This document shows positions 632 to 22,582 of a stretch of DNA of 27,020 nucleotides, piece after piece. Under the pieces are notes generated by a model, which made no database searches, was not told the origin of the DNA, and saw only the letters and a list, made by a program, of their open reading frames with translations. Position 1 is the first letter of the stretch; each line of letters opens with the position of its first letter. Made by a program: the position numbers and the translations under genes. The stretch is from Acutalibacteraceae bacterium (GTDB lineage Bacteria; Bacillota; Clostridia; Oscillospirales; Acutalibacteraceae), in the NCBI GenBank assembly GCA_045133435.1, contig JBGUUF010000175.1, positions 1 to 27,020 on the forward strand, read 5' to 3'.

Positions 632-1786
632 ATGAATGTTTTAACAAAAATCGGATATAGCAACTTAACCGTAGAAATCAGATTCCCGATTGATGATGAC
701 TCGCTCGAAAAAATATTACGGGACAATTATATGCCCACTGATACGACAAAACCGTTTTCTGTACGGTCAATAGACTATCCCGAAGTGCTGTCAGGACTCG
801 AAGGACAGACCGTCAATCTGGACGAGCTCAATTACCTTGCCAAAAGGATTGAATGCTTCTTTGATGATGAATTCAATCAGTTCAGCGCAGCGGTTGACCA
901 CACAAAAGCGACCGGCCTCAAGGACTTAATCAACCTCTCGTTCAACCTTGATAAATATACGCTGATTACGGATATCAGTGATATGACGAAGGTCGGCAGA
1001 GAATATGTACTCAACACTGAAGGTTCAGTTCCTGCCGATACCAGATATGATGAAAAGTACGCTCAAATCGGCAAAGAATTGCTGAATTCAGGTCGCGGGA
1101 TCTTTACAGAAAAAGGTCTGCTGTTTATAGAGGACAAACCACTTGAAGAAATCTATGACGGTCAGGTTTTTCCGTCCTTCGCGTATAACCGTTCCATTGC
1201 GGATGTAGAAATCGAATACAACGGCAAACTTGAAACCGTCTTTTTGCCGGACTCAGAGCTTGCCATTAGTAAAGCGATAAACAGGCTTGGAGCGGAGAGT
1301 ATTGAAGATTGTGACTGCGTGATGGAGATTCTCGATCCCAAGTACAATAAGCTGAGTGACACGCTTGAAGAAATCTTCAATAACGAGGGCATCAACGAGC
1401 TTAACAGTATCCTAAAAACATTGAACGAATACGATATTGATCCAAACATGGTATCCGCCCTAATCGAATATACCGGCGTAACCTCGGCAAGCGACGTCAA
1501 TGTGCTGATAGACAGTGTTGATGACTTTGAACTAATCGCTGACGTTGACGAGGGCGACTATGACGAAGTTGGCAGATACTTTATCAATCACACTGATGAT
1601 TATGATTTGTCCGAGGAATTGGAAGATTTCTTCGACTTCCAAGAGTTCGGAGAATATATCTCTGACGAAAAGTCAGGGCAGTTCGTATCCGGTGGCTTCA
1701 TTTACTATATCGGATACAACAGCTTGGACGAAATAATGGATCAGCTTGATACCGCTGACAGCTCTATGCGGATGGGAGGTATGTAA
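632..1786 (+). CDS. ardA: ArdA-like antirestriction protein (acidic DNA mimic, two ArdA-like modules)
   Basis: NLDELNYLAKRI...KDLINL...VGR motif and C-terminal EVGRY...LEDFFDFQEFGEYI..SGQFVSGGFI resemble ArdA-type domains. Very D/E-rich. SD GAGGTG at 616-621. Ends SMRMGGM. Confidence 0.7.
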   Translation: MNVLTKIGYSNLTVEIRFPIDDDSLEKILRDNYMPTDTTKPFSVRSIDYPEVLSGLEGQTVNLDELNYLAKRIECFFDDEFNQFSAAVDHTKATGLKDLINLSFNLDKYTLITDISDMTKVGREYVLNTEGSVPADTRYDEKYAQIGKELLNSGRGIFTEKGLLFIEDKPLEEIYDGQVFPSFAYNRSIADVEIEYNGKLETVFLPDSELAISKAINRLGAESIEDCDCVMEILDPKYNKLSDTLEEIFNNEGINELNSILKTLNEYDIDPNMVSALIEYTGVTSASDVNVLIDSVDDFELIADVDEGDYDEVGRYFINHTDDYDLSEELEDFFDFQEFGEYISDEKSGQFVSGGFIYYIGYNSLDEIMDQLDTADSSMRMGGM

Positions 1787-1787
1787 G

Positions 1788-2324
1788 ATGACCGATAAAC
1801 GCATGGAAGAACTATTGAATAACATCCTTTTTTGGATCACTGAACTCGTTCACGACGACGAAGAGATATATCATACGCTTCATGACGTTATTGGTATGAA
1901 CGATTGTGAAATCGTAAACTGCGGTATTGATTATCTGAGCGAGTATTTTACGGATAGACCGGATAAATCTATGCTATTCTCAAAGGTTACGCTTACCGCA
2001 GATAATGGTTCAACGGATGAATTCATCTGCGGAGGTATCGTAAACTGCGAGGAAGATTTGGAAAATGCTGATCTTTACAATGAATTTCTCGAAGATAACC
2101 CTGATGCTGAAAGCATTGAGGTCAACGCCAGAGTGTACTCCTTCGGAGATGGAGAGTCAGAGAATGCAGATGACGAGGAACTTGCGTATATCAGAAACAG
2201 AGGCGATGAATTCCTTGACAGTGATGAAGTCGACGATATAGAATCCTCCAACTTTATCATCCTTACCGAGAATGAAGAATTTGAGGAAGAGGATGATGAA
2301 CCGTTCAGAATGGGAGGCTTGTAA
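1788..2324 (+). CDS. Acidic hypothetical protein, two-domain; C-terminal domain paralogous to the next gene
   Basis: Start moved from 1746 to ATG 1788 (GGAGG at 1775-1779, 8 nt upstream). LFSKVTLTA domain shared with 2324..2662. Ends EDDEPFRMGGL. Confidence 0.8.
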   Translation: MTDKRMEELLNNILFWITELVHDDEEIYHTLHDVIGMNDCEIVNCGIDYLSEYFTDRPDKSMLFSKVTLTADNGSTDEFICGGIVNCEEDLENADLYNEFLEDNPDAESIEVNARVYSFGDGESENADDEELAYIRNRGDEFLDSDEVDDIESSNFIILTENEEFEEEDDEPFRMGGL

Positions 2325-2662
2325 TGGCAATCCTATTCTCAAAAGTAACGCTTACCGCCGAAAACGGAAATGCGGCACAGCTCCTTTGCAGTGGGATCCC
2401 GAAAAGCCATTATGACTTAGAGGATTGGCTGATTTATCAAAAGTTTATATGCGACAATCTCGACTGTCGTCAAATCAAAGCAGAAGTTGAGTCCTTTCTC
2501 TATGGAGAGGGAGAGGTATTCACAGCAAATGAATATGAGATAGCTGCCTACACAGGCAGAGGCGAAGGATTCCTTACGCATCCCGACGTGCATCCGCAAG
2601 GCAGATCGGAATTTACAATATACACTCCCATTATTAGAAACGAGGTGAGCTTATGCTTATAA
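2324..2662 (+). CDS. Hypothetical protein (LFSKVTLTA domain)
   Basis: TAATG overlap with the upstream stop and GGAGG SD. Homologous to the C-terminal part of 1788..2324. Confidence 0.75.
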   Translation: MAILFSKVTLTAENGNAAQLLCSGIPKSHYDLEDWLIYQKFICDNLDCRQIKAEVESFLYGEGEVFTANEYEIAAYTGRGEGFLTHPDVHPQGRSEFTIYTPIIRNEVSLCL

Positions 2663-3504
2663 CAGCAGTTGTGAATAACAAAGGAAACACAGTTGTGGTA
2701 GATCTTCCGCGCGACAGAATGGATCTTGATACAAAGCTATACTCCATCGGGCAGGAGTTATCCCACAACACACCCATAACAGACGATCCAGACAGTGATA
2801 TTACCGTAAAGCTGTTGTCTGACAGCGATATCGGCACTCACTTGATAAAGCTGTTCAACGACAGCCATACGCTGAGAGATGTCAACAATCTCACCAATTC
2901 TGTGATGAACGCGCCGGATGAAGTCAAAGAGGCGATAGAATCAGATATCCTTAACGATCAGTATTCTACGCCTGATGAACTCATTGAGGATGTCAAAAAG
3001 CAGACATTTGAAGCCGGACAGTACACTGAAACCTTCTACTTTCCGCTTACCGGTATGCTTGAAGATGAAGAGTACGATGACGAGTACGAAGTAGGCAACC
3101 CTTTCCTCATGGATTATAAATGGGATATTGATGAACTCGTGGAAAAAGAGCAGGATGCTGACTTGGGCGATATGAAGGATTATTTCTACGATGACGATAA
3201 CGCCCAAGCTAAAATGGTGACTGCCAGATGGGGAATAGCCGAGAAGAACGGCAAGCTCTATGGCAAGGTCGATTTCAAACTCCGTGAGCCTTTCTCGGCA
3301 GAAGAAAAGGAAAAGGTCAGGAATTGGGTTTGTGGTCAGAACTCAGACGGCTTTGGGGAAGGGCTTGAACAGAGACCTATCGAAACCGAGGACGGCGACC
3401 TTTATGTATCCATGTGGAGCTCCGGCGATGATTACTTTATCTACGATGAGAACGAGATGAATGAATATCTTTCTCAGCAGCAAAGCGGAGGGATGAAGCT
3501 GTGA
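2653..3504 (+). CDS. Acidic conserved ICE hypothetical protein with GQxSDGxGEGxEQ motif
   Basis: SD GAGGTG upstream, overlaps both neighbours. GQNSDGFGEGLEQRPI...LYVSMW motif is one I recall from Clostridial ICE proteins. Ends QQQSGGMKL. Confidence 0.8.
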   Translation: MLITAVVNNKGNTVVVDLPRDRMDLDTKLYSIGQELSHNTPITDDPDSDITVKLLSDSDIGTHLIKLFNDSHTLRDVNNLTNSVMNAPDEVKEAIESDILNDQYSTPDELIEDVKKQTFEAGQYTETFYFPLTGMLEDEEYDDEYEVGNPFLMDYKWDIDELVEKEQDADLGDMKDYFYDDDNAQAKMVTARWGIAEKNGKLYGKVDFKLREPFSAEEKEKVRNWVCGQNSDGFGEGLEQRPIETEDGDLYVSMWSSGDDYFIYDENEMNEYLSQQQSGGMKL

Positions 3505-4490
3505 CGTATGCGGATTTAGCCAATTGGCTTGAAAACGACGCTGACCGTCACTGTATCGTTGAAGAAAGAGGAGATCGAAAGCACCTAGTCAAAGTACCGT
3601 ATGATGATGACTTCGACTTTCTCTATTATCAAAGAGTTTGCAACGGTAACAATCTGTCCCGTAACCAAGCCTTTTACTACTGTGGTTTCTACAATAAGCT
3701 GGACGGAAAGCTTTACGACTTGCAAAGTGTATTGAGAGGAAAATGTCCTGAACTATATTCAGGAAAAACGATCCGTTCCATACAGGATGAATTTGAGTCT
3801 GCAGTTCGCAGCTTTGTCGAAAACACTGTAGATAATAACGTCGATAACCTTCGCAGTCCATTTTTTGAGGATGCGTCATATCAGCAAAAGTTTGACCATT
3901 TCAGAGAATACTATGTGGACTCAGATGTTCGGCAGAGATTCTTGAACGGTGGGACCGCAGACGATGTAAAATTCCACTGCGACTATGACTGTAACAGATT
4001 TGAAGAAGCTCAAATGATACGGTTTCTCAAATACCCGACTGCAGCTGTAGAAGAAGCGGCGACAGAGTATTGGCAGACTCATCAGGATGATATGCTTCTC
4101 AAACTGTATATGAACGAACACGTCCGTGATTTCCTTGAAAAGCTCGAAGCCCAAGAAGATACACGCTTTCACCGCCAGAGAAATATCAGCAAGGCAATCA
4201 ATGAGAGCGGAGCAAAGTCTGTAAATGTAACTATCCAACGTGACGGAAAGGATTTCACATTCAAGTATGATGCGTATAAGCTTGGCTGTAACGCATATAT
4301 GGATTATCATTCTTGGGATATGCCCGCGAAAGACAGAGAAAACTTTCGGAATATGTTTGAGGAAGGCTCGCGGTTCTATCCGCAGGAAATCACCGCGATC
4401 ACTTACAGAGGAAAAACGATCTATGAAGCTGAGCCCTGGGGCATTGACGAATCTCCTGATGAGGGCGAAAGCTTTGATATGAAGATGTAG
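3501..4490 (+). CDS. Conserved ICE hypothetical protein
   Basis: GTG start overlapping the previous stop (GTGA) with GGAGG SD. 329-aa ORF in the operon. Ends DEGESFDMKM. Confidence 0.8.
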   Translation: MTYADLANWLENDADRHCIVEERGDRKHLVKVPYDDDFDFLYYQRVCNGNNLSRNQAFYYCGFYNKLDGKLYDLQSVLRGKCPELYSGKTIRSIQDEFESAVRSFVENTVDNNVDNLRSPFFEDASYQQKFDHFREYYVDSDVRQRFLNGGTADDVKFHCDYDCNRFEEAQMIRFLKYPTAAVEEAATEYWQTHQDDMLLKLYMNEHVRDFLEKLEAQEDTRFHRQRNISKAINESGAKSVNVTIQRDGKDFTFKYDAYKLGCNAYMDYHSWDMPAKDRENFRNMFEEGSRFYPQEITAITYRGKTIYEAEPWGIDESPDEGESFDMKM

Positions 4491-4504
4491 AAGGTGAAGC
4501 ACCA

Positions 4505-6061
4505 ATGACACAGATACAAATAGAACTGACAATGGAGAAAGAAAACGGCGGCGGTTACTTTTACGCCTCACTTAATCTGCCCGCGACCAAGATGCAGATT
4601 GAGAATGCCAAACAGCAGGCGCGGTATATGCCGAACCTTAATCTTTACCATGATATCTCGGTCTACGAATCGACCGGAATCAGCTTTGATAACGTAAGGC
4701 TGGATACCACGAGCATTGAGGAACTCAACTTCCTTGCAAAGCGGTTGAATTCGCTGAACCGTCAGGAGCAGACTGCCTTTGACGCCTTGACGGAGAAATA
4801 TTTTTCCAATATAGGCAGAGAAGATATCGCATCCGTAAAGGATTTGATTAATCTGACTTACGGTTTGGATACGATTCCGATGCTTCGGAATATCAACGAC
4901 CTTGAAGAACTCGGCAGATTCGCTGTTGTGAATGATTTCATTACAGACTTAGAAGAAGTTCCCGATTCAGCGCTGAAATACCTTGATTATGAGGTGATTG
5001 GACAGGAGCAGATGGAGAAAGATGACGGCTTCTTTATCGACGGCTGTTATGTCGCCGTTGGTGAGTACGGGTACCCCGAAGTTTATGACGGAGTAAATAT
5101 TCCGCAGACAGAAGAATTTGAAAACGCTGTATTCAGGCTCCTTGTATCTAAGACTCCCGTAGAGGATCCGAGCGAGGTGATGGACAGCGCAAGGTGGCTT
5201 GAACTGCCGATAGGTATTGATGAGCTCCACGAGTTTGCCGAAGAGCTTGGTGCGGACAGTATTGAGGACTGCGTTTACTATGACTTTCAAAGCGGTATTC
5301 CTCAGATCGATGAGGATGTCTTTGACTCTATGGAGAAGATTGAAGCGCTGAATATCATAGCCAACGAATATCTCATGCAGTCATATGACAACCGAATCCT
5401 GTTCAAATCTATCATTGAAGCGGAGAATATCGGCTCCCTCGAAGAAATGAAAGACGTGTTCGGCGCGCTGAACAGGTATGAACTATGTTATCAGGATGAA
5501 AACGCCGATGAGTTTTTCAAGCGATTTCTCGCCTATCACGCTCCGACGGATTTCGATACCAAGTGGCTTGAAGAAGTATCCTCCCACGATGACGCAGAAA
5601 AACTGCTTAAAACACTCGGCGCGAAGGTCACCAATTACGGTATTGTATCTGCTTACGGCAGATCACTTTATGAGAATGTTGCGTTTCCAACGCAGGAAGT
5701 AGAAGCGGAATGCTATGAACTGATGGAGGTGTGCGGACAAAAAGCATTGTTCAGCGACAGTCGTATATACGACAGCGAAGTTCCCGAAGGGATGTACTGT
5801 TATGATTTCAGAGAGGCGACCGGTTCAGAAGATTATTACTACGGCTCAATAGAGAAGAACGTACACATTGATCACGCAGGCTCATTTATCGTGAAAGAGC
5901 CGCTTGATCTCGGTACAGATGGCTATATCGAGCTCGATTACGATACCGAGCCGAATTTTCTCGGAGAAATGATGACAGCGGAAGAATTCGCAAATACAGA
6001 TTTCCCCGATGATGAAAATATAGATGATGAACCCATACAGACAGGAGGAATGAAAATATGA
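4505..6061 (+). CDS. ardA: ArdA-like antirestriction protein fused to a C-terminal LPD28-like domain
   Basis: SIEELNFLAKRL...KDLINLTY...LGR...LKYLDYEVIG..DGFF matches the 632..1786 module. From about 5711, EVCGQKALFSDSRI...VPEGMYCYDFR...HAGS...NFLGEMMTAEEF resembles LPD28 (polyvalent-protein-associated domain). Ends EPIQTGGMKI. Confidence 0.7.
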   Translation: MTQIQIELTMEKENGGGYFYASLNLPATKMQIENAKQQARYMPNLNLYHDISVYESTGISFDNVRLDTTSIEELNFLAKRLNSLNRQEQTAFDALTEKYFSNIGREDIASVKDLINLTYGLDTIPMLRNINDLEELGRFAVVNDFITDLEEVPDSALKYLDYEVIGQEQMEKDDGFFIDGCYVAVGEYGYPEVYDGVNIPQTEEFENAVFRLLVSKTPVEDPSEVMDSARWLELPIGIDELHEFAEELGADSIEDCVYYDFQSGIPQIDEDVFDSMEKIEALNIIANEYLMQSYDNRILFKSIIEAENIGSLEEMKDVFGALNRYELCYQDENADEFFKRFLAYHAPTDFDTKWLEEVSSHDDAEKLLKTLGAKVTNYGIVSAYGRSLYENVAFPTQEVEAECYELMEVCGQKALFSDSRIYDSEVPEGMYCYDFREATGSEDYYYGSIEKNVHIDHAGSFIVKEPLDLGTDGYIELDYDTEPNFLGEMMTAEEFANTDFPDDENIDDEPIQTGGMKI

Positions 6062-6654
6062 TTCAGAATATACAGGCAGTTGATCTTCGGAAAATGAACG
6101 GCAAAGAGGGATTGATCCTTCAAGGCTGCGGCGGAGATCCGCAGGAATGGGTAGACGGCATAAATCAGATGTTGACTGAAGCAGGAATACTCCTTGATAA
6201 CACAAAGTTTACCGATGTAAGCGTATTTGAACATGAAGGTCACACCAACATCCTGTTCCCGTTTGATGACAGCGTCCATGTCCACACAGGAAAGCTTGCC
6301 ATGTGGCGGCTTGCTACCCATAACGATTTCGGCGGCACATGGCTCTCCGATTATGTTGACAACAATCTCGGCGGTTTCAAAACCGAGGAAAAGGAGAGAG
6401 TAAAACCCGACTGTCCATTGATTGGCGCAGACGGCAACATCTTTAATCTCATGGGAATCGCATCCAGAACGCTCAAGCAAAACGGCATGAGGGACGAGGC
6501 TCATGAGATGTGCGACCGAGTAACAAAATCCGGCAGCTACTCCGAGGCACTTGGAATCATTGGAGAATACGTCAACATCACCGACGGCTCCGAGAGCGAG
6601 GACTATGATGACTTTGATGAGGATGACGACGAAGGGATGGGCATGCGGTTATGA
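6058..6654 (+). CDS. Conserved ICE/phage hypothetical protein, two small domains
   Basis: ATGA overlap with AGGAGG SD. GLILQGCGGDPQEW and KPDCPLIGADGNIFNLMGIASRTL motifs. Acidic tail ending DDDEGMGMRL. Confidence 0.8.
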   Translation: MIQNIQAVDLRKMNGKEGLILQGCGGDPQEWVDGINQMLTEAGILLDNTKFTDVSVFEHEGHTNILFPFDDSVHVHTGKLAMWRLATHNDFGGTWLSDYVDNNLGGFKTEEKERVKPDCPLIGADGNIFNLMGIASRTLKQNGMRDEAHEMCDRVTKSGSYSEALGIIGEYVNITDGSESEDYDDFDEDDDEGMGMRL

Positions 6655-6827
6655 AAACGCTAATTTTAACCGATGATGAATCCGACGTTCTCGAAGAACT
6701 CGTAGGCAAAGCTTTGTGTGGCTATACAGATGAGAGGACAGAACAGATCCTGACAGGATTGGAAGAGAAGTTTGCAAATCTTAACAGCGATGAATCCCTC
6801 GAAACAAACAGGGGAATGAAGCTGTAA
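6651..6827 (+). CDS. Small acidic hypothetical protein (58 aa), not in the supplied ORF track
   Basis: ATGA overlap with the previous gene. MKTLILTDDESDVLEELVGKALCGYTDERTEQILTGLEEKFANLNSDESLETNRGMKL ends in the cluster's tail motif. Confidence 0.7.
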   Translation: MKTLILTDDESDVLEELVGKALCGYTDERTEQILTGLEEKFANLNSDESLETNRGMKL

Positions 6828-6837
6828 GTTGAGATAT

Positions 6838-6882
6838 ATGTACGGAAAACCATATGAAGAAAGGCAGGCGATGAGGTTATGA
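6838..6882 (+). CDS. Possible 14-aa mini-ORF or gene remnant (MYGKPYEERQAMRL)
   Basis: ATG 6838 to TGA 6882. Ends with the same M-R-L tail as 6058..6654. Only a weak SD upstream. Confidence 0.3.
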   Translation: MYGKPYEERQAMRL

Positions 6883-6926
6883 TTTACTGCAGCCCTATCG
6901 GGTAAATCAACACACTATTTCAATGC

Positions 6927-6959
6927 GGCAGAGGAAATACCTCTGCCTATTCTATTTTT
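6927..6959 (+). terminator. Intrinsic terminator ending the acidic-protein operon
   Basis: GGCAGAGG (6927-6934) / CCTCTGCC (6940-6947) stem, 5-nt loop, followed by TATTCTATTTTT. Confidence 0.7.
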
Positions 6960-6976
6960 GAAGAAAGGAATTGCAC

Positions 6977-9900
6977 ATGGACAAAATTGTTTCAAGAAAA
7001 AATTTCAGAAGAGTATCGGCGCTTATCCTTGCGGCGGTAACAATCCTCTCCGTGTTTTTCGCCCTTCCCGTAGGAGCGCAGACAGGAGATAAGACAACCA
7101 TCACCTTTGATTATTGTTATGACACGGCAGGCAACATCATTACTTTCGCCAAGACTGTTACCAACGGCAGCGTTACCGTAGGAACACCCGGTGAAGAGCT
7201 CTGCAGAATCTACGCGGACGGCAAAGACGCCTACTGCATTGAACCCGGCTACAGCCTGTTTTCGGGCAATCAGCTGACAGAAGGAAAATCTTCTGTTTGG
7301 GACGGCGTTTCTGCGGCCAAGAGAAAGGCGATCAATATTGCGCTTCTCTATGGTAAGCCCGGCAGCGGTAAGAACCTTTCGGGAACCGAGGGTCAGAAGT
7401 GGATTGCTACTCAGCTTATTGTATGGGAACTTATGACCGGATGCCGTAACACAAGCGAAGGCTTCAAGTGTACAAACACCAAGTATATCGACGGTATGTG
7501 CGCAGGCGATAAGAATCCCGGCGTTAAGTCTGTTTACAATTCTATCTCAAAGTCAATGGCGGCTCACAGTACCGTACCTTCTTTTGCTGCGGTATTGGCT
7601 TCAAAGGCTCCTACTCACACGATGGAGTATAAGGACGGCAAGTATCAGATAACACTGACCGATAATAACGGAGTCCTTTCCCAGTTCAATTACAAGACAA
7701 GCGGCAATATCGCTGTCAGCATTTCAGGCAACAAAATGACGCTTGCCACTAATTCTCCTATTACAGAGGAAAAAACGCTTGCTATCAACAAGACTGTCCC
7801 GACAGTTTCGAGCAACTCTGTGCTTGTAGCTCATGGTGATTCCTCCAAGCAGGATGTTATCACGGGTCTTGCTGCTCCCGATCCCGTGCCTTCGATCTTC
7901 AAGCTGAAAACCAGTGCCGGACATCTGAAAATCGTCAAGACCGCAGAGGACGGCAATGTTTCGGGAATTGAATTCACGGTAAAGGGCAGCAACTACAACA
8001 AAACCGCTAAGACCGACAAGAACGGCGAATTGATTCTCGCGGGACTCGTCCCTGGCACCTATACGGTAACGGAAACTCCTTCAGATAAGTATGTCAAGCA
8101 GCCCGCTCAGACCGTTAAGGTTGAGAACGGCAAAACAGCGACAGTCAAGTTTAATAACTCCATCAATAGAGGTAACCTTGATATCGTCAAGACTTCCGAG
8201 GACGGTGTAGTTGCCGACATTCAGTTTACCGTAAAAGGCACAAACTATAATCAGACCGCAAAGACGGATAAGAACGGTAAAATCAGCCTGACAAATCTTC
8301 TTCCCGGTTCCTATACAGTAACAGAGGCTCCCTCGGAGAAGTATGAGAAGCAGGCTCCTCAGACCGTTAAGGTCGAGTATGGCAAAACAGCGACTGTCAA
8401 GTTCCACAACACTATCGACAGAGGCGCTCTCGACATCATCAAGACATCCGAGGATGGCGTTGTAGCGGATATTGAGTTTACCGTAACGGGTAACAATTTC
8501 AATAAGACAGTAAAGACCGACAAGGACGGCAAAATCAACATCCCGAATCTTCTCCCCGGAAAGTACACCATTACCGAGAAAACGCCCGACAGATATGTCA
8601 ATCAGCAGTCCCAGATCGTAACCGTTGAGTACGGCAAGACTGCAAAAGTCAGCTTCAAGAATGTTCTCAAGCGCTCCGAGATCGTCATTCAGAAGAAGGA
8701 TATGGAGAGCAAGAAAATCATTCCTCTCGCCGGATTCGGCTTCCAAATCAAGAAAGCTGACGGAACTCTTGTAAAGGCTGACGGCAAGGATACCTTCTAT
8801 ACCGATAAGACAGGTACCATCAAGCTCCCGATTCAGCTGACCTACGGCAAGTATCAGCTTATCGAGGTGAAAGCAGGAATAGGTTATGTCCTTGACGGTA
8901 AGCCCATTGATTTCAATGTTGACGGTACAAAGACAGTTGTGACTCTTGAACAGTATAACAAGGCTGAAAAGGGAACGATCACCATCTTTAAGCTCGGCGA
9001 CATCTTCAAGACTGTAACCGAGGAAACCGTGACTGCTCCTACAGAGGAAACGGAACCCGAAACTACCGTTCCGAATGACGCAAAGGAAACAGAGCCCACC
9101 GAACCTTCAAAGCCTGCTGAACCTACAGCGCCTTATGGTGATCCTTCCGAGTCTTCTGCTTCGCAGGAGCCCACTAAACCTCAGAAGCCTACCGAACCCA
9201 CAAAAGAGATATTTGATGAGAAAACAACGGCTCCTACTGAGGAAGTAACCGAACCCGAAGAGATCACCAGATATATTCCCGTATTCGAGGAAGGTTATCT
9301 CAAAGGTGCGGAATTTGAAATCACTGCAGCCGAGGACATCACAACTCCCGATGGTGTAGTTCATTACAAGAAGGGTGAAGTGGTAGATACCATCACCACC
9401 TCCAAGAAGGGCAAAGCTGTATCCAAGCAGCTCTATCTTGGTAAATATCTGATTCGTGAGACCAAGAGTCCCTACGGATATATCAGAAACGCGGAGGCAT
9501 ATCCCGTAACACTCAGCTACGCGGGAGAAACCGTTGAGGTAACCAATACCGACCTGACTGTTCACAATCAGAGAGAAAAAGCAGAAGTGTCTCTCAAGAA
9601 GATTATTGAAAGATATGAGAAGCTGAATCTCGGTACTGAGGTTCAGCTCACAAAGGTAGCCTTCGCTATCTACGCCAACGAGGATATCACAGCCGAGGAT
9701 GGCAAGTTCATTCCGAAGGACGGTTTAATTGAAATCGTGTACTGTGATGAAGAGGGCAATGTTAAGTTTGAAACAGAGCTTCCTTTCGGCAAGTACTATG
9801 TTCAGGAATATTCAACCGATGACCACTATGTGCTTGATGATACCAAATATGAGTTTGAGTTTGCCTATTCCGAGGATCTCGATGTGGAGGAAGTCCATAT

Positions 9901-11359: not shown

Positions 11360-11373
11360 GGGGTGGTTTTTAA

Positions 11374-12285: not shown

Positions 12286-12306
12286 TGTTTTGTTTGGAGG
12301 TAATAA

Positions 12307-12579
12307 ATGAAAACCTATTTATATCCGCAGAATCTCCGTGCCACAGCCAACCTCTGGCTGTGGTCGCTGCGTGATTTTGCCATTATGTGTGTAGCCCTGC
12401 TGCTCTCGATCCTTATTCTTTCGCAGACCGGAATCGTTGTCCCTCTGGCGCTGACATTGGCTTTTGCATTTCTGTCGATTCGCTTTTCAGACACGACCGT
12501 TTTGGATTTCATCAGGTATGCAGCGAAATACTTTATGCTCACACAACAGAAATTCATCTGGAAAGAAGGGAAACGATAA
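12307..12579 (+). CDS. VirB3/PrgI-like small membrane protein
   Basis: 90 aa, two TM helices, GGAGG SD, located between the VirB6-like gene and the VirB4 region. Confidence 0.65.
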   Translation: MKTYLYPQNLRATANLWLWSLRDFAIMCVALLLSILILSQTGIVVPLALTLAFAFLSIRFSDTTVLDFIRYAAKYFMLTQQKFIWKEGKR

Positions 12580-13215: not shown

Positions 13216-13218
13216 ACT

Positions 13219-14058: not shown

Positions 14059-14077
14059 CATCTCTATCTAATTATCA

Positions 14078-14142
14078 GTCATTTGCAATGCGGATGACCG
14101 CTACCCCAAAGTCCTCCCGTTGCAAATGACGTGACAGGAGGA
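14078..14142 (+). promoter_or_regulatory. Structured leader of virB4 with anti-SD and alternative stems
   Basis: 11-bp inverted repeat GTCATTTGCAA (14078-14088) / TTGCAAATGAC (14120-14130). TCCTCC (14112-14117) is complementary to the SD GGAGGA (14137-14142). Confidence 0.45.
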
Positions 14143-14145
14143 AAA

Positions 14146-15987: not shown

Positions 15988-16006
15988 CAGAAGATTTGTC
16001 CAAGAA

Positions 16007-16032
16007 AACCTCCGCATTTTCTTGCGGAGGTT
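16007..16032 (+). terminator. Strong hairpin after virB4 (core of a larger 15983-16061 fold)
   Basis: AACCTCCGCA / TGCGGAGGTT perfect 10-bp stem with 6-nt loop. There is no long T-run on the + strand, so termination strength is uncertain. Confidence 0.55.
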
Positions 16033-16034
16033 AG

Positions 16035-16063
16035 TGGACAAGCGGTTGCTTTTCTGTTATCAT
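16035..16063 (+). promoter_or_regulatory. Sigma-A/70 promoter for the cargo genes
   Basis: TGGACA (16035-16040), 17-nt spacer, TATCAT (16058-16063) with extended TGn. Confidence 0.6.
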
Positions 16064-16097
16064 AAAGACAGATAAATTGGAAGTTAAAGAGGTAGTT

Positions 16098-16427
16098 ATG
16101 AAAATAGATTTTAATGAGTTTCAGGAAATGACAATTCCGTGTATGAATGACGGCGCGGGTATGATGACTGTGAAGATGTACAACGATGAAAACTATCGTA
16201 TCATTCCCACAAGAATACTATCAGGCGGCAGTATCGGTTTACACACACAGAACACCGGCGATGACCTAAACTATATCATCAGCGGTACGGGGAAAGCGAT
16301 TTGTAACGGCGTTGAGGAAGAACTGAAAAAAGGCGTTATGCATATTTGCCCCAAAGGTTCACAGCACACAATAATCAATACCGGTGACGATGAACTTGTT
16401 ATGCTGACAATTGTTGTGGCAAGATAA
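16098..16427 (+). CDS. Cupin domain protein
   Basis: GGSIGLHTQ...LNYIISGTG...G.MHICPKGSQHTIINTG cupin motifs. ATG 16098 follows GAGG. Confidence 0.85.
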   Translation: MKIDFNEFQEMTIPCMNDGAGMMTVKMYNDENYRIIPTRILSGGSIGLHTQNTGDDLNYIISGTGKAICNGVEEELKKGVMHICPKGSQHTIINTGDDELVMLTIVVAR

Positions 16428-16468
16428 ATTCAAATTAATAGGATTAACTGGACATTGAGGTAACGAGC

Positions 16469-16633
16469 ATGAAATTGATACCACTCAATAAGCAAAGCAA
16501 AAAAGAACAGAAGAAATACCATGCTCGACGCCGTAGGGATTGGAACGGCTTGAAGCCGACCACCAGAGTTGTCAAGAGCAAAAAGGTTTATGACAGAAAG
16601 AAGCTGCGCAAACTTGACGCGGATTCTATGTAA
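16469..16633 (+). CDS. Small very basic hypothetical protein (54 aa), not in the supplied ORF track
   Basis: GAGG SD. MKLIPLNKQSKKEQKKYHARRRRDWNGLKPTTRVVKSKKVYDRKKLRKLDADSM fills the gap between two + strand genes. Confidence 0.7.
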   Translation: MKLIPLNKQSKKEQKKYHARRRRDWNGLKPTTRVVKSKKVYDRKKLRKLDADSM

Positions 16634-16647
16634 CATAGGGGTGGAAG

Positions 16648-16938
16648 ATGGCAGACAAAAACAAAGACTATTTCTTTCGCGTGATTTCAAATCAGGTAAG
16701 GTTCGGTTGCGGGTTCAGAACTATTGACGGAAAACGTCAGTATTTTGCTTGGCATGGCTATCCTGACAGAAACAGCGATTATATCACAACAAGCGAAATC
16801 AGTGAAAGCGAGTTTAACGAGATAAACAAAAAGTATCCCAAAGAGATTATCGCTAACAGAGCAAAGGCAGAGGTGTTCCGCAATAAATATGTAGACGGTC
16901 ATCAGGTTATTCTTGAAGGCTGGGACAGACTGCTGTAA
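16648..16938 (+). CDS. Hypothetical protein
   Basis: GGGGTGG SD-like sequence, 96 aa, co-oriented and gap-filling. Confidence 0.7.
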   Translation: MADKNKDYFFRVISNQVRFGCGFRTIDGKRQYFAWHGYPDRNSDYITTSEISESEFNEINKKYPKEIIANRAKAEVFRNKYVDGHQVILEGWDRLL

Positions 16939-16979
16939 GAAAAGCCTGATAGCAACACAATTAGATAAGAGGAATCATC

Positions 16980-17273
16980 ATGAGTATATTTGCAAAGAAA
17001 TACAAGGTAGATTACTGCGGCGAAAAATACGCATATAAGAACGCAAAGGACGAATACCGCGCAGGGGAAAAGGTAACTCTCTATTACTGGATGATCGCTA
17101 CCGACACGGACTATTCTTTCAGTTTAGATGGAGCCGAACTATCACGTGACTATGATTCGAAGAAGGGATTTGTTCTCAACTTCATTATGCCTGACCATGA
17201 TGTAGTGCTGCATTGTTTTTCAAGAAACTCAATGTTAAGAGAAATGCCAAAGGAGGGTTACGATGAGCAATAA
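16980..17273 (+). CDS. Small protein resembling a single divergent InlB B-repeat-like beta domain
   Basis: YRAGEKVTL and FIMPDHDVVL motifs, GAGG SD, no signal peptide. Confidence 0.6.
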   Translation: MSIFAKKYKVDYCGEKYAYKNAKDEYRAGEKVTLYYWMIATDTDYSFSLDGAELSRDYDSKKGFVLNFIMPDHDVVLHCFSRNSMLREMPKEGYDEQ

Positions 17274-17490
17274 GATTACACTAGACACTTTATCAAACTA
17301 TGAAAAGCTTCTTATAATAGCTGCCCGTGAAGCGGATGAACGTGCAAGAGAAGATGCGCTTAATCTGTTGAGATCAAGAAAGCAAGAAGAATATATTGTT
17401 AACGGCGGTATAAAAAAGACAAAAAGCTATGGCTATACCAGAGGCGCAGAGTATTATAGCAGACCGAGGAAAACGGAACCGGATAAATAA
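17263..17490 (+). CDS. Hypothetical protein
   Basis: AGGAGG SD inside the upstream gene, 11-nt overlap, 75 aa. Confidence 0.6.
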   Translation: MSNKITLDTLSNYEKLLIIAAREADERAREDALNLLRSRKQEEYIVNGGIKKTKSYGYTRGAEYYSRPRKTEPDK

Positions 17491-17493
17491 CTA

Positions 17494-17535
17494 TTGACAT
17501 TACACTCAACTGCCTGTATAATAACGATACAGGCA
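17494..17535 (+). promoter_or_regulatory. Consensus sigma-A/70 promoter with overlapping operator-like inverted repeat
   Basis: TTGACA (17494-17499) - 17 nt - TATAAT (17517-17522). TGCCTGTAT (17511-17519) N7 ATACAGGCA (17527-17535) straddles the -10 box. Confidence 0.85.
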
Positions 17536-17566
17536 AATGCCTGCAATTCTATTTGAGGTGAGCGTA

Positions 17567-17896
17567 ATGGAGAATATTAGTTTAGATGGTTTTTGTACGG
17601 TACATATAAAGCCGGAAAGCGCTTTGCGCGAACGCCGTGTTATTCTCGGTTTGACACAGCAGGCGGTTGCTGACAGAGCTCAAATCCCGATTCAAAGTTA
17701 TCAGCAGTTTGAAAGCGGTAAAAGGAAAATAAGACGGGCATCTTTTGAAATAGCCTGTCGTGTTATTGAAGCCCTTGAAATGACGCCTACAGATTTCTAT
17801 CACACTGATTATTCAATCGGTGAAGAAATCTACAATTCGGAAGAAGGGCTTCGCTATAAGAAAACAGGAAAGTTAACATATGAGGACGTAGAATAA
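17567..17896 (+). CDS. XRE-family helix-turn-helix transcriptional regulator
   Basis: LRERRVILGLTQQAVADRAQIPIQSYQQFESGKR HTH. ATG 17567 follows GAGGTG. Confidence 0.88.
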   Translation: MENISLDGFCTVHIKPESALRERRVILGLTQQAVADRAQIPIQSYQQFESGKRKIRRASFEIACRVIEALEMTPTDFYHTDYSIGEEIYNSEEGLRYKKTGKLTYEDVE

Positions 17897-17997
17897 ATGG
17901 ATTTGGAAAGCGTTCCATAAATACATAGTTGGGGCACCGTTATGGTCAAATCAAGGTTCCGCTAACAGGAGAAAAAATAATACATAAATAAAAATGA

Positions 17998-18032
17998 AGC
18001 ACCAATCGACTGGCTGAGTCGGTTGGTGTTTT
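17998..18032 (+). terminator. Intrinsic terminator-like hairpin before the hydrolase gene
   Basis: 14-bp stem (two G.U pairs) AGCACCAATCGACT / AGTCGGTTGGTGTT, 5-nt loop, T-run. Confidence 0.65.
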
Positions 18033-18050
18033 CTGTTAGGAGGAATAATT

Positions 18051-19424
18051 ATCAGCGCAACGATAGGCGCCGCACTAAAGAAAATAGCTGTGGCGATACT
18101 CACAAACAAGAACGCTCTGAAAAAAGCATTGACCGTTATTCTTATTATTTTGCTTGTGATTCTGATGCCGGTTATAGCGATAGTCTCGTTTTTTACAGGA
18201 AATATCAGCATAGACACAGCCGGACTCTCGCAAAAGATAGAATCACAGTTAACGGCTGAAGAAAGAGCAAAAATATCCAAAGCTGAAGAATTACTCAAAA
18301 AAGTTGAAAGTGAGATGAAGAAAAAGAAGTATACAGACGATCAGATCTTGCAGGCAAGAGTTATTACTGTTTTATTTTTGCAGGATAAGGTATCAGATAA
18401 GGATTTTGTCTCTAAGCTTGTCGGCTGCTTCAAGAAGAATCAGAAAACTCAAACGCTCATCAGTAACGTCAACAGAACCTTCAGCACTACGATTGAGGTT
18501 GAGGATTTTGAAAAGCTAATGTCATACATCAATACTTCATCAGGCAGTGGTGATATCGTAAGGATAGCCCAAAAAGAAATAGGAAATGTCGGCGGTGAAA
18601 AGTATTGGAAATGGTATGGATTTCCGTCAAGAGTTGATTGGTGTTGTATCTTCGTGTCTTGGTGTGCTGATCAGTGCGGATATATCAATTCGGGATTAGT
18701 ACCCAAATACTCTGTAGTCGATGACGGCGCGAATTGGTTCAAGCAGAAGAATCAATGGCTGCCTGGTTCCGCAACACCGAGTCCCGGATATATTATTTTT
18801 TTTGATTGGGCATATGATGGCTTGGACGGCAAAGGTGATCACACAGGCATTGTCGAAAAAGTTGAGAACGGTATTGTTTATACCATTGAGGGCAACAGCG
18901 GAGATAAGGTTTGTGAGAATCAGTATAGAGTAGGAAACAAGGAAATCTTGGGCTACGGTAAATTCAAGCAGCCCGAAATAGCCGCGTCTGGTGACGCAGC
19001 AACTCAAGTGTGGAATTATTTGAAAAGCTATGGCTATTCAGACAGCGTAGCCGCAGGGATCATAGGAAATATGATGCGAGAATGCGGCGGCGATACGCTG
19101 AACCTTGATTGGGATGTTGTCGGTCACTTTAACGGCGACGAGTATTATGGATTATGCCAGTGGTGTTTGAGATATACTCCATCAAACTTCAAAGGTGCGA
19201 CCATTAAGGAACAATGCGAATATCTGCATCAGACAATCGAATCTGCTTTTGCTTCTTACGGCGGTAACTATAACGGGATCACCTACAGCGAGTTTCTGAA
19301 AGCGGACACGCGCAAAGCGGCGATAGCATTTGAAAGGGTATATGAACGATGCGGTGATTATTCGTTTGAGGATGGACGCAGAGCGGATAACGCTGAAACA
19401 GCATATAAGAAGTTTCACAAATAA
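18051..19424 (+). CDS. Conjugation peptidoglycan hydrolase (VirB1-like): N-terminal TM, CHAP domain, phage-tail-type lysozyme domain
   Basis: CHAP motifs WCCIFVSWCA, DHTGIVE, TIEGNS. Lysozyme motifs VWNYL...AAGIIGNMMREC...YGLCQW...FERVYER. Start placed at ATC 18051 (7 nt after AGGAGG); the first canonical start is GTG 18090. Confidence 0.85.
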   Translation: MSATIGAALKKIAVAILTNKNALKKALTVILIILLVILMPVIAIVSFFTGNISIDTAGLSQKIESQLTAEERAKISKAEELLKKVESEMKKKKYTDDQILQARVITVLFLQDKVSDKDFVSKLVGCFKKNQKTQTLISNVNRTFSTTIEVEDFEKLMSYINTSSGSGDIVRIAQKEIGNVGGEKYWKWYGFPSRVDWCCIFVSWCADQCGYINSGLVPKYSVVDDGANWFKQKNQWLPGSATPSPGYIIFFDWAYDGLDGKGDHTGIVEKVENGIVYTIEGNSGDKVCENQYRVGNKEILGYGKFKQPEIAASGDAATQVWNYLKSYGYSDSVAAGIIGNMMRECGGDTLNLDWDVVGHFNGDEYYGLCQWCLRYTPSNFKGATIKEQCEYLHQTIESAFASYGGNYNGITYSEFLKADTRKAAIAFERVYERCGDYSFEDGRRADNAETAYKKFHK

Positions 19425-19504
19425 GAATTATTATAAAGAAGAGAGCTGGATTATTAATTTAAATGTGGTATTGTATGTTGTTACACAGAGGGAGGTGAAA
19501 ACCA

Positions 19505-20554
19505 ATGATTTATAAAGCACAATTTGAAACAAAGCGCAGCAGAGTGGATTTTGATGAATGCGATATTAGATTCAGCGTAGGATTATCCAAAGAGGACTTT
19601 GATCATCTGCGGACGAATCTGTTAGAGGAATCGAAGTTTATCAAGCCGTATCTTCATATGCTCGACCGAAACGCCGAGGTGGATCAGGCTATGCTATTCA
19701 CTTGCGATAATGAGAAATACGGATTGATTGTGATTCCAAGTGATACAGGCTATGCTCGGTACACGGCGTTCGTTCCTGACGCGAGAAGAATGCCTGCTCA
19801 TCTGCAGTACAGCTCACTTGATAAATACGATGAAGAGATGACGCGCATTGTCGGACTCTATACTCAGAAAGCATTAGACGATCAAGAGGACGGAGAGTAC
19901 AATCTTGATATGGACGAAGTGTATGATGAGTTTAAGTTCCGAGAATTTAATCAAAATCTATTCCTTGATATGCTGCGTGACCGCCCTGAATTTGACGATA
20001 TCAATTACTATGACGGTGTGTACACAGTCAAGATAGCAAAGGACTATCTCAGCGATGACGAATACTACCGTTTATTTCAGGACGATGTCGACATCATGGA
20101 AGCTAAGCACATCCTTTGGATGCACGACGCAGGCGGCGAACAAGCAGACTTCCGAGGCTGTGAGATGGATGGGATTGATTTCAAAGGAAAAAACTTCGCC
20201 GGAGCAATATTTGATGACAGTATCGTTACTAACTCGGACTTCGGGAACGCAATGCTGATGGGCGCAAGCTTCAATCAGTCAGAAATCAATAGATGTGATT
20301 TCACAAATACAACCGCCGAAGAAGTCAAAGCGAAAAACGCCGCTTTCATTGACTGCAAGTTTACACAAGCAGATTTCATTGAAAGTGATTTTGAGGGAAC
20401 GCGCTTTGATAACTGCGATTTCGGTTGTATCTCAATTGAGAACAGCTGTATCAAGGACACCGAGTTTTACAGAACAGAACCCGAAAAGGAAGAATTGGAC
20501 AGGTGCTATGAAACAAAACCTGATACCAAACAAAATCAAAATATTAATCTATAA
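19505..20554 (+). CDS. DUF6329-like N-terminal domain plus pentapeptide-repeat protein (paralogue 1)
   Basis: GLIVIPSDTGYARYTAFVPDAR N-terminal motif, KHILW..AGGEQADF followed by about 110 aa of A(D/N)F/Lxx pentapeptides. GGAGGTG SD. Confidence 0.8.
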   Translation: MIYKAQFETKRSRVDFDECDIRFSVGLSKEDFDHLRTNLLEESKFIKPYLHMLDRNAEVDQAMLFTCDNEKYGLIVIPSDTGYARYTAFVPDARRMPAHLQYSSLDKYDEEMTRIVGLYTQKALDDQEDGEYNLDMDEVYDEFKFREFNQNLFLDMLRDRPEFDDINYYDGVYTVKIAKDYLSDDEYYRLFQDDVDIMEAKHILWMHDAGGEQADFRGCEMDGIDFKGKNFAGAIFDDSIVTNSDFGNAMLMGASFNQSEINRCDFTNTTAEEVKAKNAAFIDCKFTQADFIESDFEGTRFDNCDFGCISIENSCIKDTEFYRTEPEKEELDRCYETKPDTKQNQNINL

Positions 20555-20580
20555 CGCCGATGGGAAACTATCGGCGTTTC
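20553..20580 (+). terminator. GNRA-capped hairpin between the two pentapeptide genes
   Basis: AACGCCGATGG-GAAA-CTATCGGCGTT, 11-bp stem, short T tail. Confidence 0.5.
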
Positions 20581-20603
20581 GCTATGTAAAGAAGTGAAAA
20601 CGA

Positions 20604-21653
20604 ATGATTCTAAACGTACACCTTAACAGAAAACCAACCGAGTACGGTTTGAGCCGTTGCAATGTCGCTCACATCGTCGAACTTAGTCATGATGATTTTA
20701 TCATGCTGAAAAGCAGACCGCTTGATGATTACAGCTTCATAACGGACAACAAGGATAAGCTTCAGTACGATAACAGTAATACACGTCAGTGCATTATGTT
20801 TCTTGACGGCGAAGGTGATGACGGAATCCTTGTAGATCCGCAGGGATATGATTACGCCAGATATTCGGCGTATATTTCCAACGCGCGGCAGCTCTGCAGA
20901 CTCGGACAGTACCCTTCGCTTGATGACTCAAACAGGGATATGGAGAGTCTGGTGGAGCATTACGTCAGAGAGGTGATGGAAACACATTCTGAGGGAGAGG
21001 CGACTCTCTCCCTTTCCGATGTGGACGATTATTACCACTCAGAGTATCAAGGCTTTCTTGACCACGAGCTGTTTCAGAATATGATGACAGAACGCCCTGA
21101 GCTTGACGGTGTAGAAGAAAACTGCGGCGATTTATTTATCCATGTTAAGTCACAGTATCAGCATAATCAGATGAGAGAGCTTAGTCAGCAGGAAGTTGAC
21201 GTGATGTGCGCGAAGCATATCCTGTGGTTGAACGATGCCGGTGGTGAACAGGCTAACTTTCAAAACTGCTATCTGAATAACATTAATCTGTTTGGAAAGG
21301 ATTTATCCAACAGTTATTGTGAAGGTGCTTTGTTCGAAAAATGCGATATGCACTCTACAGATTTCGAAAACGCCGAAATGGAGTCAGCGAGATTCGATAA
21401 CTGCTATATGCAGGATTTCTTCGCAAACAAGACAAACCTGATTCAAGCAGATTTTATCGGGTGCGATATTTCTAACTCTGTTGTCTGCGATTCTATTCTC
21501 ACAGGTGCGACGTTGCAGAACTGTAAGGTTGATAACACGCAAATCATCAACTGTCAGCTTGACGGCTTCGATTATCCGGCAACAAATATCGAATCGTTGT
21601 TTTGCATGACGCAAAAATCATCCGATGAAACAAGCAACATGAATATATCATAA
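20604..21653 (+). CDS. DUF6329-like N-terminal domain plus pentapeptide-repeat protein (paralogue 2)
   Basis: LNRKP...DDGILVDPQGYDYARYSAYISNAR, KHILWLNDAGGEQANF and pentapeptide repeats. Same length (349 aa) as the upstream paralogue. Confidence 0.8.
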   Translation: MILNVHLNRKPTEYGLSRCNVAHIVELSHDDFIMLKSRPLDDYSFITDNKDKLQYDNSNTRQCIMFLDGEGDDGILVDPQGYDYARYSAYISNARQLCRLGQYPSLDDSNRDMESLVEHYVREVMETHSEGEATLSLSDVDDYYHSEYQGFLDHELFQNMMTERPELDGVEENCGDLFIHVKSQYQHNQMRELSQQEVDVMCAKHILWLNDAGGEQANFQNCYLNNINLFGKDLSNSYCEGALFEKCDMHSTDFENAEMESARFDNCYMQDFFANKTNLIQADFIGCDISNSVVCDSILTGATLQNCKVDNTQIINCQLDGFDYPATNIESLFCMTQKSSDETSNMNIS

Positions 21654-21663
21654 GAGGTAGCCT

Positions 21664-21915
21664 ATGAAGAAAGAAAATATCAGTATTGCTTATGACAGCG
21701 AAAAGCTTTCTGCTGTCAAGTTATATATGGAGCAGCGCGATACCGATTTGAAATCAGAGATGGAAAAGTCGCTCGACGCGCTCTATACAAAATATGTTCC
21801 CGCAAACGTGCGTGAGTTTCTTGATATGAAATCATCTGCGCCGTCAACAAGCAGACCAAAATCAAATCGTTCTAAGCCGAGCGAAAATAAAAGCGAGGTG
21901 AATGAGAATGTTTGA
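21664..21915 (+). CDS. DUF6103-like small ICE protein
   Basis: YDSEKLSAVKLYMEQ...LYTKYVPANVREFLDM motif, GAGG SD. Confidence 0.75.
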   Translation: MKKENISIAYDSEKLSAVKLYMEQRDTDLKSEMEKSLDALYTKYVPANVREFLDMKSSAPSTSRPKSNRSKPSENKSEVNENV

Positions 21916-22582
21916 AATAAACTTTGATTTCGATTACAACAGCTATAAGCTCAACGCTATTATTGATTGCTTCAATCACGAGGAAGAGGAACTGCGGATG
22001 GAGTTGATCAATCACATGGAAAAGCTCTACGATGAGCTTGTGCCGCCCGAAGTGAAAGAACAGGTTGACCAAGAAATCCTTGAAGAGCATAACCGTCAGT
22101 GGCAGTATGATAATTGCTTTGCGCTTATCCATATGCACAATGACGATGATGAAGAAGTGTATTTCGTGGCAAAAGGAATACACTCGCTTTATGACGCTGC
22201 GAGTTTTTATTATCATCATCTGTTAGATATGAAAGATGAATATACTCTTGATTGTCTTGTAGAAAAATTCGATTCCTATGATTATACAGATAAGCCAGTC
22301 TTTGATGTGCTGTCCGATGCGCAAGACAATGATAAGAGAATCAGCTGTACAGTAGACTATGATTTTGAAACCGGCATTCTTACCTTCAAGGAAAACGGAG
22401 CGCAGGAATCAGAATACTTTGACTTGAATTTCTTGGAGTCTGCTATTGAAAGAGCAGAACACGGAGGTGTCGGAGAAGCTCAACGTCATGATTCCTTCGA
22501 CGCTGATATCGAATGGTATAAAAACCAGAGTCAAAGTCGTTTCGGTGAAGGTCAGGACGAGGGCAGTACAATGCACCTGTGA
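21908..22582 (+). CDS. DUF6103-like N-terminus fused to an acidic C-terminal domain
   Basis: ATG 21908 is 7 nt after GAGGTG. N-terminus aligns with the upstream gene. Ends QDEGSTMHL. Confidence 0.75.
   Translation: MFEINFDFDYNSYKLNAIIDCFNHEEEELRMELINHMEKLYDELVPPEVKEQVDQEILEEHNRQWQYDNCFALIHMHNDDDEEVYFVAKGIHSLYDAASFYYHHLLDMKDEYTLDCLVEKFDSYDYTDKPVFDVLSDAQDNDKRISCTVDYDFETGILTFKENGAQESEYFDLNFLESAIERAEHGGVGEAQRHDSFDADIEWYKNQSQSRFGEGQDEGSTMHL

Follow-up and report, generated by a model that had tools for sequence, protein, structure and literature searches.

Otherwise largely unrelated proteins encoded on a conjugative element of gut Oscillospirales share a short C-terminal tail, which we analysed in a 27,020-nucleotide stretch of DNA (the window). 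The window is the whole of contig JBGUUF010000175.1 (C175) of a fragmented metagenome-assembled genome (MAG; 613 contigs, 2.6 Mb, 47% GC) from an Acutalibacteraceae bacterium (GCA_045133435.1), and carries genes for a type IV secretion system (T4SS) and a relaxase of an integrative and conjugative element (ICE). We regard it as practically certain that the shared tail is real and that chance is excluded as its source. As to function, we lean with moderate confidence toward a recruitment or translocation tag for the coupling protein and T4SS of the element.

Tagged proteins of the window

An original prediction, made from the DNA letters, had listed eleven C-termini that end alike, and on re-reading all eleven sequences were as it had given them. 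Seven of these end in M-[KRH]-[LMI]-stop (MKL at 3504, MKM at 4490, MKI at 6061, MRL at 6654, MKL at 6827, MRL at 6882 and MHL at 22582). Such ends were absent, as claimed, from the T4SS core proteins, the adhesin, the sortase, the VirB4-like ATPase, the hydrolase and the genes of the cargo block. The eleven tagged genes were as follows.

632..1786, + strand: ArdA-like acidic protein, 384 amino acids (aa), net charge -53; end SMRMGGM, a register variant in which GG is the Shine-Dalgarno sequence (SD) of the next gene
1788..2324, + strand: acidic protein, 178 aa from the ATG at 1788; end PFRMGGL, a register variant
2653..3504, + strand: acidic protein of unknown family; end QQSGGMKL, the canonical tail
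3501..4490, + strand: acidic protein; end GESFDMKM; no downstream gene overlaps
4505..6061, + strand: ArdA and LPD28 protein, 518 aa, net charge -74; end IQTGGMKI
6058..6654, + strand: acidic protein; end DDDEGMGMRL
6651..6827, + strand: acidic protein, 58 aa; end TNRGMKL; no gene downstream
6838..6882, + strand: open reading frame (ORF) of 14 codons; end QAMRL
19505..20554, + strand: DUF6329-like and pentapeptide-repeat protein; end QNQNINL, a degenerate tail (I-N-L)
20604..21653, + strand: DUF6329 and pentapeptide-repeat paralogue; end SNMNIS, the tail plus one residue, as in homologues ending MKLS and MTLS
21902..22582, + strand: acidic protein, 226 aa; end DEGSTMHL, followed by non-coding DNA; homologues end STMRL, FTMQM and APIQM

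These proteins were mostly unrelated to one another, with only three paralogous pairs found in an all-against-all BLASTP comparison. They contained zero hydrophobic segments, and their net charges ranged from -8 to -74. The second gene had been listed as 1746-2324, and its most likely start is the ATG at 1788, directly past the SD that lies within the preceding tail. The MGG[ML] ends at 1786 and 2324 represent a register variant, M-R-M or F-R-M being followed by a GG that the SD encodes. We also observed that the next gene (2324-2662, 112 aa) is a paralogue of the C-terminal half of 1788-2324 (38% identity over 100 aa) with neither linker nor tail, so that the two genes form an adjoining tagged and untagged pair.

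Orthologues of the 3501-4490 protein had a constant F/N-x-M-[K/S]-M end, preceded by an acidic linker that differed in both length and sequence. A total of 26 homologues of the 6058-6654 protein were observed in related loci, with ends such as GQAMKL, RQMMNL and GMSMKL. The two ends NINL and NMNIS were weak when taken alone, falling within the top 11-13% of background scores in the position-specific scoring matrix (PSSM) described below. Members of the DUF6329/pentapeptide family (30-33 homologues) mostly end hydrophobic-x-M/L, as in SPITM, NISM, VLSM, NLKM, GMSM and NMKL, sometimes with an extra Ser. For the short ORF at 6838-6882, the last 21 nucleotides and the next ATGA were identical in Ruminococcus sp. 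YE282, with differing codons upstream; from this sequence pattern the ORF is probably a relic, left over from the 3' end of a tagged gene since deleted and from the neighbour coupled to it.

Motif definition and enrichment

Among crude ORFs of at least 80 aa in the host MAG, 6 of 2641 ended in M-[KRH]-[LMI]-stop. Five of these were in the window and the sixth was a DUF4314 protein on contig C518. When the -2 position was left free, 15 MAG ORFs matched, and all ten with a polar residue at -2 were located on mobile-element contigs (C175, C518 and C503). The host MAG contains a second element of the same type, with four tagged genes on C518 (LGGMNL, GFSMSM, GYEMSM, APTMKL) and one on C503 (ESGMSM).

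A search with LPD28 through 400 genomes of the class returned few and short loci, and a scan anchored on TrbL_5 was taken instead. This yielded 80 related loci, with a TrbL identity of at least 68% throughout, from Ruminococcus, Oscillospiraceae, Acutalibacteraceae and other gut Clostridia. M-x-[LMI] ends were observed in 106 of the 1226 + strand ORFs in these loci (97 of 1024 once identical ends were removed), compared with 5 of 2585 background ORFs, defined as MAG ORFs outside the mobile-element contigs. Enrichment over host ORFs had been set beforehand as a check on the tail, and these counts bear it out. A generalised end, [MLIFV]-x-[ML] after a net-acidic linker, was found in 121 of 1024 ORFs and in 16 of 2585 background ORFs (Fisher p ~8e-51).

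The tagged proteins formed 21-23 families when clustered without their last 25 residues, and the family-weighted consensus was [D/E]-E-G-[M/F/P]-x-M-x-[M/L]-COOH. Met was enriched approximately 5-fold at both -1 and -3, and M/L at -1 likewise. In a PSSM built from this consensus, the window tails at 3504, 4490, 6061, 6654, 6827 and 22582 beat ~99.7% of the background or better, with five of the six above 99.9% and a background fraction of 0.0027 for 6827. The motif always occupied the final 6-8 residues, and the mean net charge over positions -25 to -4 was -6.2 in tagged ORFs versus -0.7 in untagged ones. The M-[KRH]-[LMI] motif as first drawn proved too narrow: K/R/H at -2 was unconserved, and S, Q, N, E and T were common there in orthologues and related elements. 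What stayed constant was Met at -3 and M/L at -1 together with an acidic linker, and G and F/M/P were frequent at -6/-5. Two related metagenomic elements encoded further unrelated acidic proteins with such tails (EGYSMSM, EGFGMSL, TGGMSL, LGGMNL, GQGMSL, TEGMSL, APTMRL, AQTMGM), and several of these genes had no gene close behind.

Distribution and cargo

At least one tagged gene was observed in 35 of the 36 full-length loci. In these loci the tagged genes were found at distances of 4-10 kb from TrbL, on both its upstream and its downstream side, with almost none in the T4SS core. The tail was never found on five control families of the related loci (DUF6103, DUF7768, the hydrolase, the relaxosome accessory protein and a T4SS protein with an acidic end). 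Tagged families included ArdA-like proteins, LPD28 (with DUF1281_C), DUF6329/pentapeptide, DUF4314, DUF3846 and DUF4259, as well as a Tad4 (anti-Thoeris) domain protein, Amidoligase_2, GGACT and a HipA_C-like kinase. The prediction had described the cargo as a battery of anti-defence and DNA-mimic proteins. This fits the ArdA, pentapeptide and Tad4 proteins and falls short for the enzymes (the amidoligase, GGACT and the HipA-like kinase), which are tagged too. The Tad4 protein, encoded at 921-2300 of locus L036, has 460 aa with the domain, a type I Thoeris inhibitor, at residues 338-445 followed by the tail, and constitutes an anti-Thoeris module on a conjugative element.

The plasmid collection contained only three TrbL relatives, all distant (28-32% identity). 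No tails were observed on the two inspected plasmids that carry such relatives, which suggests that the tag is limited to a single clade of this type of T4SS.

Phage homologues of tagged families

Amidoligase_2 with its GGACT neighbour was also found in Heliusvirales phages of Ruminococcus, Acutalibacteraceae, Coprococcus and others. In all six of the Heliusvirales phages inspected, the amidoligase ends just past its domain, with neither linker nor tail. Annotated or size-matched phage GGACT neighbours likewise end past the domain; one phage had an unrelated 103-aa downstream protein instead. The ICE amidoligase adds ~45 residues and ends SGFIMSM, and the ICE GGACT protein adds ~25 and ends GMSGMTL. 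DUF4314 proteins in four Streptococcus/Erysipelothrix phages had no acidic linker and no tail, one copy carrying an unrelated C-terminal extension. Tad4 in two Bacillus phages was also without linker or tail, and the ICE copy adds DAEDDSPDISPKMQL. Overall, ICE copies of the families shared with phages carry 15-45 extra residues made up of linker and tail. Four tagged families (amidoligase, GGACT, DUF4314 and Tad4) have phage homologues that lack both, and this gives indirect support to a link between the tail and conjugation.

Among 150 diverse amidoligase representatives, only 11 had an acidic extension with the tail, and most stop past the domain. We also observed other ends among the amidoligase homologues (P0176-P0325): in 39 of the 150 a basic stretch leads to a final A-A or V-A (...GRAAA, ...RRVA), and a few end in Arg runs (...RRRRR, ...SRRSR). 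Judged from their sequences, these may be other kinds of C-terminal label. The amidoligase-GGACT pair (7228-8793 of locus L125; loci L126-L131) is common to ICEs and to Heliusvirales gut phages of the same host clades, which suggests that the pair is a common module, for counter-defence or for peptide modification, passed between vehicles.

Tails on relaxases

The tail was also observed on relaxases of small mobilizable elements. A MobL relaxase of Ruminococcus intestinalis ends NDEEQGFTMSM, and within the clade of 452-aa MobL relaxases abundant in R. bromii and relatives, 108 of 120 homologues had a hydrophobic-x-M/L/I end. On four long contigs (69-469 kb) this relaxase gene was found in a module of Xis (HTH_17), accessory protein, relaxase and tyrosine integrase, and no VirB4, TrbL or coupling protein was observed within 10 kb on either side. 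The layout is that of an integrative mobilizable element (IME). The IME accessory protein and relaxase domain are homologous to those of the window (36% and 37% identity, respectively). An IME relaxase of this kind has to be recruited by the coupling protein of a helper, and its tail is the one found on cargo of the helper family. The presence of the canonical tail on relaxases of mobilizable elements that have no T4SS is further indirect support for the link between the tail and conjugation.

The IME, observed at 10001-12749 of L141-L144 and at 5035-8231 of L140, consists of HTH_17, a small helix-turn-helix protein, the accessory protein, the 452-aa MobL relaxase and the tyrosine integrase. 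It is very abundant in R. bromii and relatives and has variable cargo, including type I restriction-modification, a helicase, a VWA protein and a bacteriocin exporter.

The relaxase of the window itself has a different end:

23371..25560, + strand: MobL/MobP3 relaxase with a Sel1 repeat insert; conserved relaxase end DDKKFGLGLH, loosely tail-like

Homologues of this relaxase end ...DKKQAQG[LV]KM, ...QGLK[LI], ...KKFGLGLH or ...MAQGLH, whatever the size of their Sel1 insert. We considered this end as a copy of the same tail and rejected it, since the likeness is loose and reaches at best the top ~1% of background PSSM scores. We likewise rejected the Sel1 array as a general receptor for the tail, because some tagged elements do without it: relaxases of 472 aa lack the array, yet their element (L125) tags Amidoligase_2 and GGACT.

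Selection at the protein level

The original prediction had read the varied codons of the tail as a sign of protein-level selection, and we found the same on a wider scale. Leu at -1 was encoded by TTA, CTG, CTA, TTG and CTC, residues and codons at -2 were varied, and all three stop codons occurred in tagged genes. The prediction had further proposed that the GG before some tails can stem from the GGAGG SD of the next gene. This was true of several window genes and does not account for the tail, which persists where no gene follows. The tail was retained at 4490, 6827 and 22582, where nothing follows, and had not vanished from orthologues lacking a downstream gene, in agreement with the claim that it is independent of its neighbour. 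Overlap with the next ORF was rarer in tagged genes (26%) than in untagged ones (36%).

Gene content of the window

All large genes of the window are on the + strand. An operon of very acidic proteins at 632-6827, which include two ArdA-like members, one of them with LPD28, has a terminator-like hairpin on either side (587-599 and 6927-6947). Pfam scans identified, in addition, a thioester/SpaA adhesin; DUF3852 (VirB2-like), TrbL_5, a TraL-like protein and a VirB4-like ATPase, with DUF7768 and a sortase; a small cargo block, a CHAP/lysozyme hydrolase, the two DUF6329/pentapeptide proteins and DUF6103; and the MobL relaxase (NCBI name MobP3) with Sel1 repeats, together with a DUF3991-Toprim protein. 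Contig NZ_FMUV01000005 of Ruminococcus sp. YE282 was collinear with the window at a DNA identity of 77-90%, and from this comparison the ORF starting at 26611 was recognised as the N-terminus of a 688-aa VirD4-type coupling protein. The two further features are listed below.

6927..6947, + strand: terminator-like hairpin that closes the acidic operon ahead of the adhesin gene
26611..27018, + strand: VirD4-type coupling protein N-terminus with one transmembrane helix, cut by the contig end; candidate receptor

The coupling-protein gene (26566-27018 in the window) is broken by the contig end, and the transmembrane helix and first ~135 residues remain. Three further type IV coupling protein (T4CP) genes were observed in the MAG on contigs C252, C599 and C606, and these extra copies are probably the cause of the assembly break.

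Discussion

The tail is a short linear motif at a free C-terminus, in which a flexible D/E-rich linker leads to (G)-[F/M/P]-x-M-x-[M/L]-COOH. It has been appended to many unrelated soluble proteins of a single Oscillospirales conjugative-element family, whose members combine a relaxase of the MobL/MobP3 type with a TrbL_5/DUF3852/VirB4-like T4SS and a VirD4-type coupling protein. The receptor, the mode of binding and transfer itself are steps that we infer. We propose that recognition in the donor falls to the coupling protein or to one of its bound partners, which would read the hydrophobic side chains at -3 and -1 along with the terminal carboxylate, aided by the acidic linker. Tagged proteins would in this way be recruited to the T4SS and enter the recipient with or ahead of the DNA, where the ArdA-like, pentapeptide, Tad4-like and enzymatic cargo could act before the genes of the element are expressed. 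Small mobilizable elements appear to place the same tail on their relaxase in order to use the helper's machine.

A complex prediction between the soluble domain of the T4CP (YE282 orthologue, residues 30-600) and the 58-aa protein encoded at 6651-6827 gave a score of 0.00, which we counted neither way. We also considered a basic C-terminal extension of the T4CP as an electrostatic receptor and rejected it: the YE282 protein has a K/R-rich end, but R. bromii-type T4CPs end acidic.

Several observations weigh against a recruitment tag. A primase-like protein, itself a plausible substrate, has no tail, and the window relaxase end FGLGLH matches the tail only when its final His is disregarded. 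The ...KK-x-x-x-G-L-K end is moreover an internal motif in the IME relaxase (...KKLTHGLK), where a linker and tail are appended after it. We therefore treated the ICE relaxase end as weak evidence, and it may resemble the tail by coincidence. The 80 loci are mutually related, and counts per ORF overstate their independence. The absence of the tail from phages is compatible with any ICE-specific role, and not with export alone. The literature searched described no such signal for Gram-positive conjugation, which is silent on function either way, and contained nothing relevant on these DUF families.

A different function for the motif would be to dock the proteins on some other shared partner, not a secretion machine. 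Such a partner could be the relaxosome, a chaperone or hub encoded by the element, or a conserved host protein that, in the recipient, gathers them on the DNA as it enters. Hydrophobic-x-hydrophobic-COOH past a flexible linker is a generic format for peptide docking, the motif is common to functionally diverse proteins, and the Sel1 array of the window relaxase is of a kind able to bind C-terminal peptides. However, cargo is still tagged in elements whose relaxase has no Sel1 insert, and Pfam scans of the window proteins found no PDZ-like or other peptide-binding domain. A motif aimed at a host target would also be expected on the phage homologues, where it is absent, and a tail on the IME relaxase fits recruitment to a transfer machine better. 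We consider docking of this kind unlikely.

A C-terminal degron, the alternative named in the original prediction, would make the proteins short-lived and their anti-defence and enzymatic activities only transient. AAA+ proteases can read exposed non-polar C-termini, and the tagged proteins are potentially costly to the host. The end is nevertheless not ssrA-like, since it has a polar -2 residue, no A-A end and the form M-[S/K/Q/R/N/E]-[M/L]. It is also not clear why a mobilizable element would equip its relaxase with a degron, and phage copies of the same enzymes have no tail. We consider a degron quite improbable, the sequence comparison bearing on the ssrA-like class.

A by-product of nucleotide constraint, imposed by the SD or start codon of an overlapping gene or by a conserved recombination junction between cassettes, is very improbable and is largely refuted by our observations: several window genes do owe their GG to the next GGAGG and have stops overlapping the next start, and the relic at 6838-6882 is conserved at the DNA level, but the tail is kept without a following gene, overlap is less frequent in tagged genes, the codons at -1 and -2 are many, and the equally compact T4SS core genes have no tail.

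If recruitment to the transfer machine is correct, the tail would make it possible to predict, by a rule based on sequence, the proteins that ICEs of a large gut Oscillospirales family deliver to recipients. It would also explain how restriction, Thoeris and other defences could be disarmed before any element gene is expressed, and how small integrase-relaxase elements recruit a helper's machine. The tail would further serve as a short portable tag for tests of protein delivery between gut anaerobes, and what a monoderm VirD4 protein reads would become directly testable with peptides and point mutants. No consensus signal for protein substrates was found to be established for Gram-positive conjugation in the literature searched. 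More tentatively, and with somewhat less than even confidence, we suggest that the proteins which Gram-positive conjugative elements inject into the recipient are defined by C-terminal "zip codes", specific to each element family and interchangeable, and that mobilizable elements copy the helper's code onto their relaxase to hijack its machine. Anti-restriction and anti-Thoeris proteins, DNA mimics, kinases and enzymes that modify peptides would belong to this injected set, which could then be read straight from the sequence of such elements.

Comparison with known systems

The C-terminal pattern M/F/L/I-x-M/L-COOH is that of a class II PDZ ligand, and no PDZ-domain hit was obtained in any window protein in the Pfam scans. 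Agrobacterium VirB/VirD4 substrates (VirE2, VirF) and the Bartonella BID plus basic tail resemble the tail as transferable C-terminal labels, which a VirD4-type coupling protein reads in those systems and is proposed to read here. Their charge is opposite, however, as the linkers here average net -6 over positions -25 to -4. We observed no Arg motif and no BID-like domain, and K/R at -2 is unconserved. A basic VirB/D4 signal was accordingly rejected as the identity of the tail, which is acidic and neither Arg-rich nor net positive.

Conjugative T4SSs are known to transfer plasmid proteins (PMC8406263, PMC11288057). In the pED208/F "conjutome", RP4 and pKM101, element-encoded establishment and maintenance proteins travel via the conjugative T4SS with contributions from C-terminal or internal signals (PMC8406263, PMC11288057). 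Unlike the tail described here, those signals are heterogeneous with no shared consensus, and the systems tested are all Gram-negative.

By analogy, the closest known signal in form is the acidic one of Legionella Dot/Icm. Its computed consensus signal peptide ends ...EEEEEEEESSLLSSLKL (...SSLKL) with an essential last Leu, CegC3 ends ...EESSRFTM, and DotM binds the acidic tails (PMC5802825). The tail has the position, the acidic block and the terminal hydrophobics of a Dot/Icm-type signal: as with the Glu-rich/E-block signals, many unrelated substrates carry, within the last ~30 residues, an acidic block upstream of hydrophobic residues at the end. Dot/Icm differs in being a Gram-negative effector translocator with DotL/DotM/IcmSW, whereas the T4SS here is a Gram-positive conjugative one (TrbL_5, DUF3852, VirB4-like, VirD4-type), and Pfam scans of all window proteins detected no DotM, IcmS or IcmW. 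The consensus over the last six residues is also much tighter here, with Met at -3. Because the machine is a different one with no DotM-like protein, we take the resemblance to be one of working and not of family membership.

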